This document shows positions 38,083 to 40,986 of a stretch of DNA of 40,986 nt, piece by piece. A program made the translations under genes and the position numbers. The DNA is from Thelocarpon superellum (Eukaryota), in the NCBI GenBank assembly GCA_026025795.1, contig JAPEUG010000122.1:1-40986 (forward strand), in the 5' to 3' direction. Positions within the stretch are counted from its first letter, which is position 1, and each line of letters opens with the position of its first letter. The notes below the pieces were generated by a model. It searched no databases. It saw only the letters and a program-made list of their open reading frames with translations, and was not told the DNA's origin.

Positions 38083-39582
38083 TCATGAGTTCTTGGCTTT
38101 GGTTTGGACATCGTCCTCGAATCGTTCCAGTAGTCCGACATGCCATTCCTGAAATCGCCTTGCAGAACTCGGTATTGACCGATTACTGTCGACAAGAGCG
38201 TCTCGAAGGATATTGAGCATGGAAGGAGAGACCTCAATGTCATCGATATGACTGCTAGATAGATTTGAGAGGTTGGGCGTATGGTGAGGCTGGTAGAAGA
38301 CCTTCATCGCTCGTTTCGGACCAGCGTTGTCCATCGAGGAAGCATAGCGTGTGTCTACGTTGAAGATCCAAACCTGTCCAGATAAGCCTTCTCTGGTGGT
38401 CTTACAGTCGTCATGTTGGATCCGCTCACCAGAATGGCCGAGCCGCTTTCGTCGGTACCCTTATGGATGAAGTATTTCTTGACCGCCTGTTGTTCAACCA
38501 AGGCCAGCATCTGCGCTGAGAAAAAGGGTACGGCGGAGGATGGATGCTGAGTCCCGCCTTCTGACACAACCGAGATGCTCCATTTCTGAAGTCGGTGTCC
38601 TTGGCTTTGTTCGTCGACGTTGCCGATGTTGGCCTTGCACTGCTCACAGAGCAACTCCCCGGAAGCCTCTACACTTGAATGCTTTCTCTGTAGGTGCGGT
38701 AAGCATGTACTCTCCAAGCGACAATCTTAAAGCAGTGGCTCATGGTAGGGGAATGACGTCTGACGTGACGATATCGACGGACCCGTCTGACTCCGTGAGG
38801 AGAGAGGGTAAGTTCGAGAGGTCACGCATAGCTTATAGAGATCAATCTGGGGTAGTTGTATCGGCGACCATGTCACGTATGAGATTGCTCCCGAAACAAG
38901 CCTCCTTCTTTCTACCCAGCCAAGGGGGGAATGGAGATGGGAAGACGGGATGATGGGAGCGAAGGGAGATGTCACGTACCACAAGCCCTGGGCAGTCCTG
39001 CTCAGAGAAGAGGAGATATGTGAGATTCACTAGACCCAGTCCTCTCTGAGCCCTCAACGTGTTAGAATGGCCATATCCTTTTGCTGCCGCGGCAGGATCT
39101 CCATGATTGGAGCGAAGGAGCGGATCTTTGGGCTTATGGCAGTGCCACATATCCATCATCTCGGCCCAATCATCGCTTGGTAGATCTTTCCAGGTATGGA
39201 TCGTCCTGGACGCTACCAAGATGTGGCTACAGTTGGAGCATCTGATCTCCGTTGTCGCTTCAAGCGACGTTGCCGGCCAAGGAACCGGGTTGTCTCTTTC
39301 CAACGCATTTGCATGGAACTTGGAAACATCTCCCACGAAGCGAAAGGTGTGCTCTGTACTGAGTGAAAGAGGGATGCTTAGATCTGCAGGTTCCACGACA
39401 CACGTAGGGAGGTCTAGCTTGGAGACGCGACCCTCATGGTGGAAAAGGAACCGCTGCCCATCTCCGCTGAGCTGTGCTTTGATGTCTGATGAAGGACGAT
39501 TGGGTAGAGACACATGGACGTTTAGTTGACGGGTGTTGCGTAGCAATTCTGCATAGAGGATGACGCCACCATTCTCAACCAT
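38083..39582 (-). CDS. HECT-like E2-binding protein, UBE3D/Ipa1 family; exons 39582-38980, 38687-38430, 38373-38083
   Basis: LYAELL, two CxxC motifs, WKDLPSDDWAEMMDMWHCHKP, L|VWIFN, AMKVFY, SNRSIP..RRFQEWHVGLLERF. Confidence 0.85.
38703..38919 (-). ncRNA. Intronic box H/ACA snoRNA, snR81-like, predicted guide for U2 snRNA Psi42
   Basis: Hairpin with GGGTAG/CTACCC lower stem; pocket strands AAAGAA (38911-38906) and GATAC (38862-38858) complement U2 GUAUC-UG-UUCUUU; H-box-like AGATTG 14 nt after the pocket; terminal ACA at 38708-38706; lies in a 292-nt intron. Confidence 0.75.
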
Positions 39583-39798: not shown

Positions 39799-40986
39799 AT
39801 GTTTCAGTTACCGTCGCTGAATATCTGGTCGACGAGCCGAAAAACAAACGTGGCAGGTCAACGCATCTCAATCCCCTCGGTGGAAATTCACGACGTCGAG
39901 ACTTCACCCGACCGACGGACTCGGAGCTTGAAGCATCTCATCCGCGCAAATCATGTGAATCACTCGATTTTGTATCATGATCAGCGATACCATAACCATG
40001 TACCACATGTAAGGGAAAGAGTGCGACCAAATCCACGTGTACTGACCTGTTGTAGCTTCTTGGATCAGCCTACTTGCTCGGGGCCTCGGCCGACCATCTG
40101 AACCACGTCTACGACGAGGAATCCAAAGGGCTAGAGCCGTGGAGGAATTCACCGGGCGAAGTATCAAAACATGACTGGAGGGACTATTTGGGAGGGAGAT
40201 CGTACGTCTATCATATCAATATTTTGGCCCAGCATCCTAAATCCAACTCCAGGTACCAACGAGCATTCATCGACTTCTTCGAGGACGAATTGGTTGCCTT
40301 TGGATATGAGTGGAAGAATCTCGTGGCCGAATATCTCTTCAAAGGACAAGAGCCCCTGATTAGTTGCCTGGTTGCGGGACGTATGTCAACACATCCCCAT
40401 TCCCATCTTCTACCCCCACTGATCGTGTCCTCCCAGTCGGCCATCCCCTCATCCACCTAGCCTACGCCTTCGAGCTCTCCAACAGCACCATAGCAATTGA
40501 AGGGCTCGCCATGACAACAACGATGTACAACGGTCTGCACAAATACCTCGACGACCCATCCTACACGCAGCCATCCGCGCACCCGACCACCTCCCTTATC
40601 CAAATTCTCGAGCGCGTGCGCACCGACGACCGGCTCTCCCCAAGCCAGATCGCCAATTCCGACACCACGGACGATATCGACAATCTCGTGCTCGACCACG
40701 AAGCCGTGATCCTTGAACACTGGAACAGCTGGACCATCTCCGACGCACGCGCCCAATTCAAGGACTCGCAGCGCACCGCGGCTCTCCTCCTAGTAGGCAC
40801 GCAGCCTTTGCCCACGTCGACACGAGAATACAGCTTCTTCCTCGTGCACCTCCTCACCACCTCGCACGCCGTCCGCATTCTCCTCCCGCTCATCCCGCAC
40901 GAATTCCACGTCCCGCTGCTGCGCCAGTGGTGGCTCCTGGCGCTCTCGACCTACATCTCGCAGCACAGACCAGCCATCGACGAAAA
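39799..40986 (+). CDS. DUF4243 / questin-oxidase-like (MGS207-like) protein, 3'-truncated; exons 39799-40008, 40056-40201, 40253-40380, 40437->40986
   Basis: LKHLIRANHVNHSILYH..YHNHVPH|LLGSAYLLGA, YQRAFIDFFEDE, LGHPLIHLAYAFE, FFLVHLLTTSHAVR. Confidence 0.85.

Follow-up and report, generated by a model that had tools for sequence, protein, structure and literature searches.

A conserved candidate box H/ACA guide RNA for U2 in a UBE3D/IPA1-like intron of filamentous fungi

We analyzed a 40,986-nucleotide (nt) stretch of DNA from Thelocarpon superellum (contig JAPEUG010000122.1, hereafter the window), in which the first intron of a UBE3D/IPA1-like gene on the minus strand holds a predicted box H/ACA RNA. 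The element has the anatomy of such an RNA, is conserved in the same intron with compensatory changes across many Pezizomycotina lineages, and is complementary to U2 small nuclear RNA (snRNA). We consider it highly probable that it is a real, conserved H/ACA-type guide, most likely the one that serves the U2 position equivalent to yeast pseudouridine 42 (Psi42) in Pezizomycotina.

The host gene and the RNA in its first intron

The host gene consists of three exons that are collinear on the Pfam HECT_2 profile, separated by two introns:

38980..39582, minus strand: host exon 1, HECT_2 profile positions 1-193
38688-38979, minus strand: host intron 1, 292 nt, GTACGT...CTTAC...CAG, with GTACGT starting at 38979 and CAG ending at 38688
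38430..38687, minus strand: host exon 2, HECT_2 profile positions 199-281
38374-38429, minus strand: intron 2, 56 nt
38083..38373, minus strand: host exon 3, including the stop codon, HECT_2 profile positions 285-369

Because the three flanking exons map collinearly on HECT_2, the stretch that holds the guide RNA is intronic. A preliminary description of this DNA, made from the letters alone, had singled out intron 1 as oversized; its 292-nt length is borne out, and the exon boundaries are backed by the profile mapping. The nearest named proteins to the host are Pezizomycotina UBE3D-type "E2-binding" proteins, at no more than 43% identity. Short contigs that are 98-99% identical to the window region come from two moss-metagenome runs and one leaf-litter run; a run from a related study yielded none. 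These contigs depart from the window by a G inserted after 38923, one altered position at 38933 and three differences in exons, with none falling within 38752-38919; these differences are too few to weigh.

The predicted RNA and its 5' hairpin are made up of the following features:

38703..38917, minus strand: predicted mature H/ACA RNA, ~215 nt, running from the G that opens the lower stem of the 5' hairpin to three nucleotides past the ACA box (ACA+3)
38912..38917, minus strand: 5' strand of the 5' hairpin lower stem, GGGTAG, forming 6 base pairs (bp) with CTACCC at 38850-38855
38906..38911, minus strand: AAAGAA, 5' strand of the pocket, complementary to U44-U49 of U2 (yeast numbering)
38863..38905, minus strand: upper stem and apical part, GGAGGC...GGTCGCC, 43 nt, from the fold of the 5' hairpin
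38856..38862, minus strand: pocket 3' strand GATACAA, whose GAUAC is complementary to U2 G37-C41 (yeast numbering)
38850..38855, minus strand: lower stem 3' strand CTACCC, pairing with GGGTAG
38842..38848, minus strand: H-like box AGATTGA, one C after CTACCC, non-canonical at position 6, with family pattern AnAnnnA

The two ends of the RNA, 38703 and 38917, are placed by H/ACA rules. The motifs that the preliminary description had read on the minus strand (GGGTAG-AAAGAA-GGAGGC...GTCGCC-GATAC-AA-CTACCC-C-AGATTG) are present exactly as it gave them, and folding the 5' hairpin alone returns the structure it had proposed, with a 6-bp lower stem, a 6/7-nt internal pocket and an upper stem, at -21.3 kcal/mol. 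The spacing of 14 nt between pocket and H box that it had reported is likewise what we measure in the window, counting from the G in GATAC up to the A in the H-like box, and the interval from GATAC to the hinge box is gap-free in the alignment of relatives. This puts the 5' pocket inside the range of 14-16 nt that box H/ACA guides keep between target uridine and H or ACA box.

Conservation of the 5' hairpin and its fit to U2

JGI metagenome contigs were scanned for the host gene, not for the RNA, starting from an alignment of the exon-1 protein with its homologues. The scan gave 439 pattern matches, 236 of which were confirmed as relatives, and the best 80 loci were analyzed. Their host proteins share 34-43% identity with the protein of the window; the best named proteins in tblastn come from Boeremia (57-84%), Xylaria (~50%), Geoglossum (~50%) and Friedmanniomyces/Vermiconidia (53-64%), which suggests, such labels being rough, that the loci span several Pezizomycotina classes. 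In 72 of the 80 loci the exon-1 match is followed, 32-202 nt past its end, by an exact AAGAA...GATAC motif, and in 41 of the 80 an exon-2 homologue lies downstream of the element, which places the element within the orthologous intron.

A covariance model of the 5' hairpin plus hinge box (model R1), built from 54 distinct sequences, was searched against both strands of 81 sources (378,644 nt). It gave 76 matches at E<=1, exactly one per matching source and all on the host strand: the window itself (38841-38919, 69.6 bits) and 75 of the 80 loci. In the other five loci the contig ends 2-96 nt past exon 1; all 75 that reach the position carry the 5' hairpin at the same place in the intron. Matches of the model to its training sequences are expected by construction, and the weight of the search lies in the lack of any second match and in the recovery of loci from outside the training set. 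These are L059 and L064, which carry one change in the 5' strand (ATAGAA) and score 76.5 bits, and L069, which reads GATAT, keeps a G.U pair with U2 G37 and scores 47 bits.

The two stems of the 5' hairpin co-vary. In the 54 distinct sequences the paired cells amount to 84.9%, a share that never exceeds 45.6% when the register is slid. Cells with a double change number 86, against 34.9 +/- 4.8 in shuffles, none of 500 of which reaches 86. Compensatory changes are found in 10 of the 13 pairs, divided between the lower stem (5 of 6 pairs, 88.9% of cells paired) and the upper stem's base helix (5 of 7 pairs); lower-stem variants include GGGTAG/CTACCC, GGGCAT/ATGCCC, GGGCGC/GCGCCC and GGATGG/CCATCC. 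The pocket strands, by contrast, hardly change. GATAC is invariant in the 5'-hairpin alignment, as GATACAA in 46 of 53 rows, and the 5' strand reads CAAGAA in 28 of the 53 rows, AAAGAA in 16, TAAGAA in 4 and GAAGAA in 2, the remaining 3 being alignment-shifted. Stems that co-vary around unchanging pocket strands are what marks a guide RNA. The preliminary description had proposed comparing the orthologous intron across relatives, and that comparison finds the 5' hairpin in all 75 informative loci, its pocket strands near-invariant and its stems co-varying. It is on this conservation, and not on the bare motif, that the case for a real RNA rests.

We compared the pocket with U2 using the yeast sequence of nt 31-78, as printed in a passage of PMC4712673. 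GAUAC pairs with U2 G37-C41 and AAAGAA with U44-U49, leaving U42-G43 unpaired, which amounts to 11 bp (5+6) in the window and 10 bp in most relatives. According to passages of PMC6049503, guide activity needs at least 8 bp, including the pairs that flank the target, and modification falls on the 5'-most unpaired uridine; the 11-bp pairing of the window exceeds this minimum and retains the target-flanking pairs. The fit around yeast Psi42 that had been noted at the outset, with AAAGAA and GATAC on either side of an unpaired UG, thus stands when set against yeast U2 and is conserved in the relatives.

The branch-site segment of U2 is identical to that of yeast in 88 U2-like stretches of other eukaryotes, and the invariance of the guide strands fits an identical U2 segment across eukaryotes. 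These stretches came from a scan with a universal 20-mer of genome contigs filed under prokaryotic metagenome-assembled genomes (MAGs). There was no fungal-type U2 among the 88, no match to a fungal-type U2 22-mer in the genome contigs scanned, and no U2 gene in the 80 loci or the window. Three further stretches, from a scan of viral contigs with a U2 17-mer, were rejected, being not U2 by Rfam. Some of the U2-like stretches stand in tandem arrays, with a period of ~1.38 kb in contigs labelled Hormoscilla and ~2.08 kb in contigs labelled Anaerolineae, and the stretches on MAG contigs look like eukaryotic DNA, from hosts or contaminants, that was binned with bacterial genomes.

The hinge box, the ACA box and the 3' domain

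Downstream of the 5' hairpin, the window contains three further features:

38763..38827, minus strand: internal hairpin (hp2), with the mutually paired blocks uACCCuC (ACCC 38806-38809) and GAyGGGU (GGGT 38781-38784)
38709..38762, minus strand: divergent 3'-terminal region, with GATTG at 38722-38726 and GCTTGGAGAG at 38710-38719, which can pair with CTCTATAAGC at 38831-38840
38706..38708, minus strand: ACA box, within GGAGAG-T-ACA-TGC, 18 nt before the 3' splice site

Among the relatives, in the aligned register of 53 rows, the hinge box is canonical ANANNA in 29 and ANANNNA in 49, its seventh A being near-invariant; the four exceptions to ANANNNA look like one-column alignment shifts. The non-canonical H box AGAUUG of the preliminary description is real and falls within a conserved AnAnnnA family pattern. 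Of 55 aligned rows, 52 have ACA in register, mostly as ACAT, and the second-arm ending GGAGAG-T-ACA-TGC, followed by CTTAC and CAG, is found as first described. Across the family, the RNA spans 172-247 nt (median 223) when taken from lower stem to ACA+3; in the window it spans 215 nt. A branch-point-like motif follows ACA within 3-10 nt (window 38699-38708, minus strand, counted from ACA), as CTTAC in the window and as CTGAC or CTGAT in L061, L028 and L026; at this distance, the predicted 3' end of the RNA abuts the branch site.

At 130-165 nt, the 3' domain is longer than usual. Its internal hairpin has the blocks ACCC/GGGU in most lineages and AUCC/GGAU in others; as a side observation, the strands of hp2 (window and L001-L080) are conserved in sequence beyond what pairing needs, and there is no box at guide distance from them. 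The terminal hairpin (hp3) is canonical in most lineages, its lower stem adjoining ACA, as in GCCAGATCTT/AAGATCTGGC of L045 and GCCCGGCAA/TTGCTGGGC of L051. RNAalifold, run on 32 of 45 non-redundant 3' ends chosen for a visible local hairpin, predicts eight pairs in hp3, all eight with compensatory changes. A family model of the 3' hairpin built from the same 32 ends (model R2) matches 42 of 55 sources at E<0.01, nine of them outside the building set. We also weighed a general lower stem that would close off the entire 3' domain, and rejected it for most lineages, which have a local, ACA-proximal hairpin (L045, for example, has a perfect 10-bp lower stem); in the window, L004, L040 and L063 such a closing stem gives the best fold.

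The 5' side of the hp3 pocket has UUUCA next to the upper stem, mostly after a purine; the 3' side has GAU. In the 3' strand the G is present in at least 90% of rows and the A is invariant, with GAUUA[AG] in 14 of 45 sequences, and GAT starts 13-16 nt before ACA in 38 of the 45. Both pockets have drifted in L059 (3140-3400) and L064, where the 5' strand of the first hairpin is the ATAGAA mentioned above and the terminal hairpin keeps GAU 14 nt from ACA and has a 5' strand without UUUCA. The 3' end of the window also lacks UUUCA at the expected place, and the second pocket may have been remodelled or lost in its lineage. Given so atypical a 3' end, it is understandable that the preliminary description could assign no target to the 3' hairpin.

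For the family at large, the predicted target of this pocket reads 5'-(UUA)AUC-[U N]-UGAAA(U)-3'. In seven of the 88 U2-like stretches, stem-loop IIa has the sequence TAATCTCTG, and the unpaired U there would be U60 when counted from the Psi41-equivalent uridine (the equivalence being taken from a portion of PMC7960923). Psi60 of human U2 is tabulated without a reported guide in that 2021 review, and yeast U2 stem IIa is closed by CUGAAAU (passage in PMC4712673). A fungal U2 that joined a yeast-type stem with a TAATCTCTG-type loop would match the 3' pocket over 10-12 bp. U2 stem-loop IIa, at the equivalent of vertebrate Psi60, is thus a tentative candidate for the target of the 3' pocket, to be taken as a lead rather than as a result. 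A full-text literature search with U2 stem-loop IIa strings returned only yeast U2 or unrelated primers.

Known U2 guides and competing explanations

The best-studied point of comparison is snR81 of S. cerevisiae, a box H/ACA RNA whose 5' pocket directs Psi42 in U2 and whose 3' pocket directs Psi1051 in 25S (passages of PMC6049503). Its 5' hairpin pairs the same U2 residues on both sides of U42-G43, with 7+7 bp according to the same passages, against 10-11 bp for the fungal intron RNA. The second pockets differ. That of snR81 forms 9+3 bp, and its 3' strand opens with A164, the partner of U1050 beside the 25S target (PMC6049503, same passages), whereas the fungal family has UUUCA/GAU with G next to the upper stem and needs AUC before the target; because a G-initial strand misfits U1050 next to U1051 of yeast 25S, the fungal 3' pocket is not the 3' guide of snR81. 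The fungal RNA further differs by its extra internal hairpin, its AnAnnnA hinge box and its intronic gene.

In searches with Rfam 15, no family reached its gathering score in the window (the Rfam 15 accession of snR81 being unconfirmed), no H/ACA family matched at E<=10 in 38600-39050, and no family matched at E<=1 in 11 related loci. The preliminary description had presented the element as a snR81 homologue and had suggested an Rfam model search; that search found no match, permissive E-values included. As stated, the homology lacks support, since neither the window nor the 11 loci match Rfam 15 and the second guide is different. With no model match, a different second guide, an extra hairpin and an intronic gene, membership in the snR81 family is not shown. 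In function the fungal RNA appears to match snR81's 5' hairpin, and we would treat it as a family of its own that is so far uncatalogued.

Other guides for this part of U2 resemble the fungal RNA in some respects. The U2 position served by SCARNA4/ACA26 and by the 5' domain of non-eutherian SCARNA15, both H/ACA guides, is the same one (vertebrate Psi41); these are intron-encoded as well and are devoted to U2, but they are animal small Cajal body RNAs (scaRNAs) and are likened here by description. Human and Xenopus SCARNA4 restore Psi42 in snr81-delta yeast (passage in PMC5733568). The only other experimentally shown fungal U2 H/ACA guide outside budding yeast, going by passages of PMC5473140, is pugU2-43/44 (SPNCRNA.1709) of S. 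pombe, which differs in targeting the neighboring uridines 43/44 from a 3'-terminal pocket and in lying downstream of RPC10, not in an intron (same passages).

In Neurospora crassa, Nc ACA9 is a cloned, northern-verified, intron-encoded box H/ACA RNA of 201 nt that is classed as an orphan in the relevant part of Liu et al. 2009 (PMC2780460). Its sequence belongs to the GenBank entries EU780925-EU780999. Its size, class and intronic location, compared by description from that part of the paper, fit the fungal intron RNA, of which it may be the orthologue. A fuller picture, which we regard as possible but rather doubtful, would be a U2-dedicated, scaRNA-like RNA of three hairpins that has occupied the UBE3D/IPA1 intron since early Pezizomycotina, whose RUUUCA/GAUUAR pocket would also target U2, at the uridine equivalent to vertebrate Psi60, whose second pocket would have been altered or lost in the lineage of the window, and which would be identical with Nc ACA9. 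In the literature searched, mostly outside subscription journals, we met no account of filamentous fungi having a guide of the U2 Psi42 type.

The explanation we prefer is that of a box H/ACA RNA that would be released from the spliced host intron 1 and assemble with Cbf5, Nhp2, Nop10 and Gar1, and whose 5' hairpin would direct pseudouridylation of the uridine in the U2 branch-site region equivalent to yeast U42. Stable accumulation of the RNA, formation of the H/ACA ribonucleoprotein and the modification itself are what we infer from its conserved anatomy; a U2-specific guide would presumably act where U2 is modified.

Several points weigh against this explanation. The RNA is predicted from DNA sequence, and the target sequence comes from yeast and other eukaryotes, the U2 of Pezizomycotina being extrapolated from them; the conserved AA after GAUAC gives an A.A mismatch with U2 A36. 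The fold of the 5' hairpin only modestly beats shuffles (z -1.83, with 14 of 200 as good), and the single-sequence fold of the whole region has a z of -1.01. The bare motif AAGAA-N25-55-GATAC occurs four times in the window against 0.9 expected, a number given by 1 of 100 shuffles, and is not significant alone. Many of the loci are near-duplicates, with 59 distinct element sequences among the 72. The hinge box of the window, AGAUUG(A), departs from ANANNA, and H/ACA RNAs do not usually have some 80-100 nt and a further hairpin separating the terminal hairpin from the H box. Finally, model R2 finds no match at E<=10 to the 3' hairpin of the window, whose GAU (of GATTG) stands 18 nt from ACA, against 13-16 nt in relatives.

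An alternative that we judge improbable is a genuine H/ACA RNA whose 5' pocket is aimed at another RNA, ribosomal (rRNA) or another snRNA, that reads like GUAUC-UN-UUCUU, the fit to U2 being coincidental or secondary. H/ACA pockets can serve more than one substrate (according to a passage of PMC6049503), the U2 sequences compared were those of yeast and other eukaryotes, and the GATACAA of 46 of 53 rows is mismatched opposite A36. Yet both strands are near-invariant across hosts whose proteins are only 34-43% identical, as expected of an invariant target; the branch-site region of U2 is just such a target, being the same in yeast and in the 88 U2-like stretches, and the 10-11 bp flank a UG that is a known site of guide-dependent pseudouridylation.

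Still less probable, and unlikely in our view, is a cis-acting structured element, such as a U2 decoy or a splicing tuner of the UBE3D/IPA1-like pre-mRNA. It would account for an element found always in the same intron of the same gene, complementary to the part of U2 that reads the branch site, and abutting with its 3' end, in the window, a branch-point-like CTTAC; a stable RNA, moreover, is deduced from sequence. A cis role would have no need, however, of the H/ACA hallmarks that are conserved: a bipartite pocket that leaves the target dinucleotide unpaired, a fixed distance of 14 nt to an AnA...A hinge box, an ACA box in 52 of 55 rows, and a second hairpin with its pocket 13-16 nt from ACA. 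Chance resemblance in an ordinary long intron, for which one might cite the four copies of the bare motif against 0.9 expected, the weak fold z-scores and the lack of an Rfam match, is already refuted by one match per orthologous intron in 75 of 75 informative loci, with none elsewhere in 378,644 nt, and by compensatory substitutions in both stems.

If the U2 guide explanation holds, the element gives a large group of filamentous fungi a concrete and testable candidate guide for the position equivalent to Psi42, and would explain why host intron 1 is kept about five times as long as intron 2. To our knowledge, guides for U2 pseudouridylation are largely unknown outside budding yeast, fission yeast and animals. 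The gap shows in the parts of two studies that bear on it: for N. crassa, Liu et al. 2009 gave no predicted pseudouridylation sites in snRNAs (PMC2780460), and the fungal snoRNA survey of Canzler et al. 2018 traced snR81 (HACA_26) only within Saccharomyces (PMC5824354). The family would also fill a gap in annotation, as no Rfam model matches it, and for H/ACA biology its conserved AnAnnnA hinge box is of interest, as is the additional hairpin that lies past the H box and ahead of the ACA hairpin.

Two minor observations concern the surroundings of the element. At ~40074-40984 of the window (plus strand), the Uncinocarpus reesii homologue (P0020) is annotated as a single protein of 703 aa with PF14027 and HECT_2, and its tblastn matches are long (up to 404 aa) in many loci, which suggests that the gene neighboring the host is syntenic across these fungi or was mis-fused in the P0020 annotation. 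Within host exon 1, just upstream of the 5' splice site, a hairpin-forming region (38998-39050, minus strand) gives a weak Rfam match to mir-7094 (17.7 bits, E 0.54, against a gathering score of 90), which is probably due to chance.

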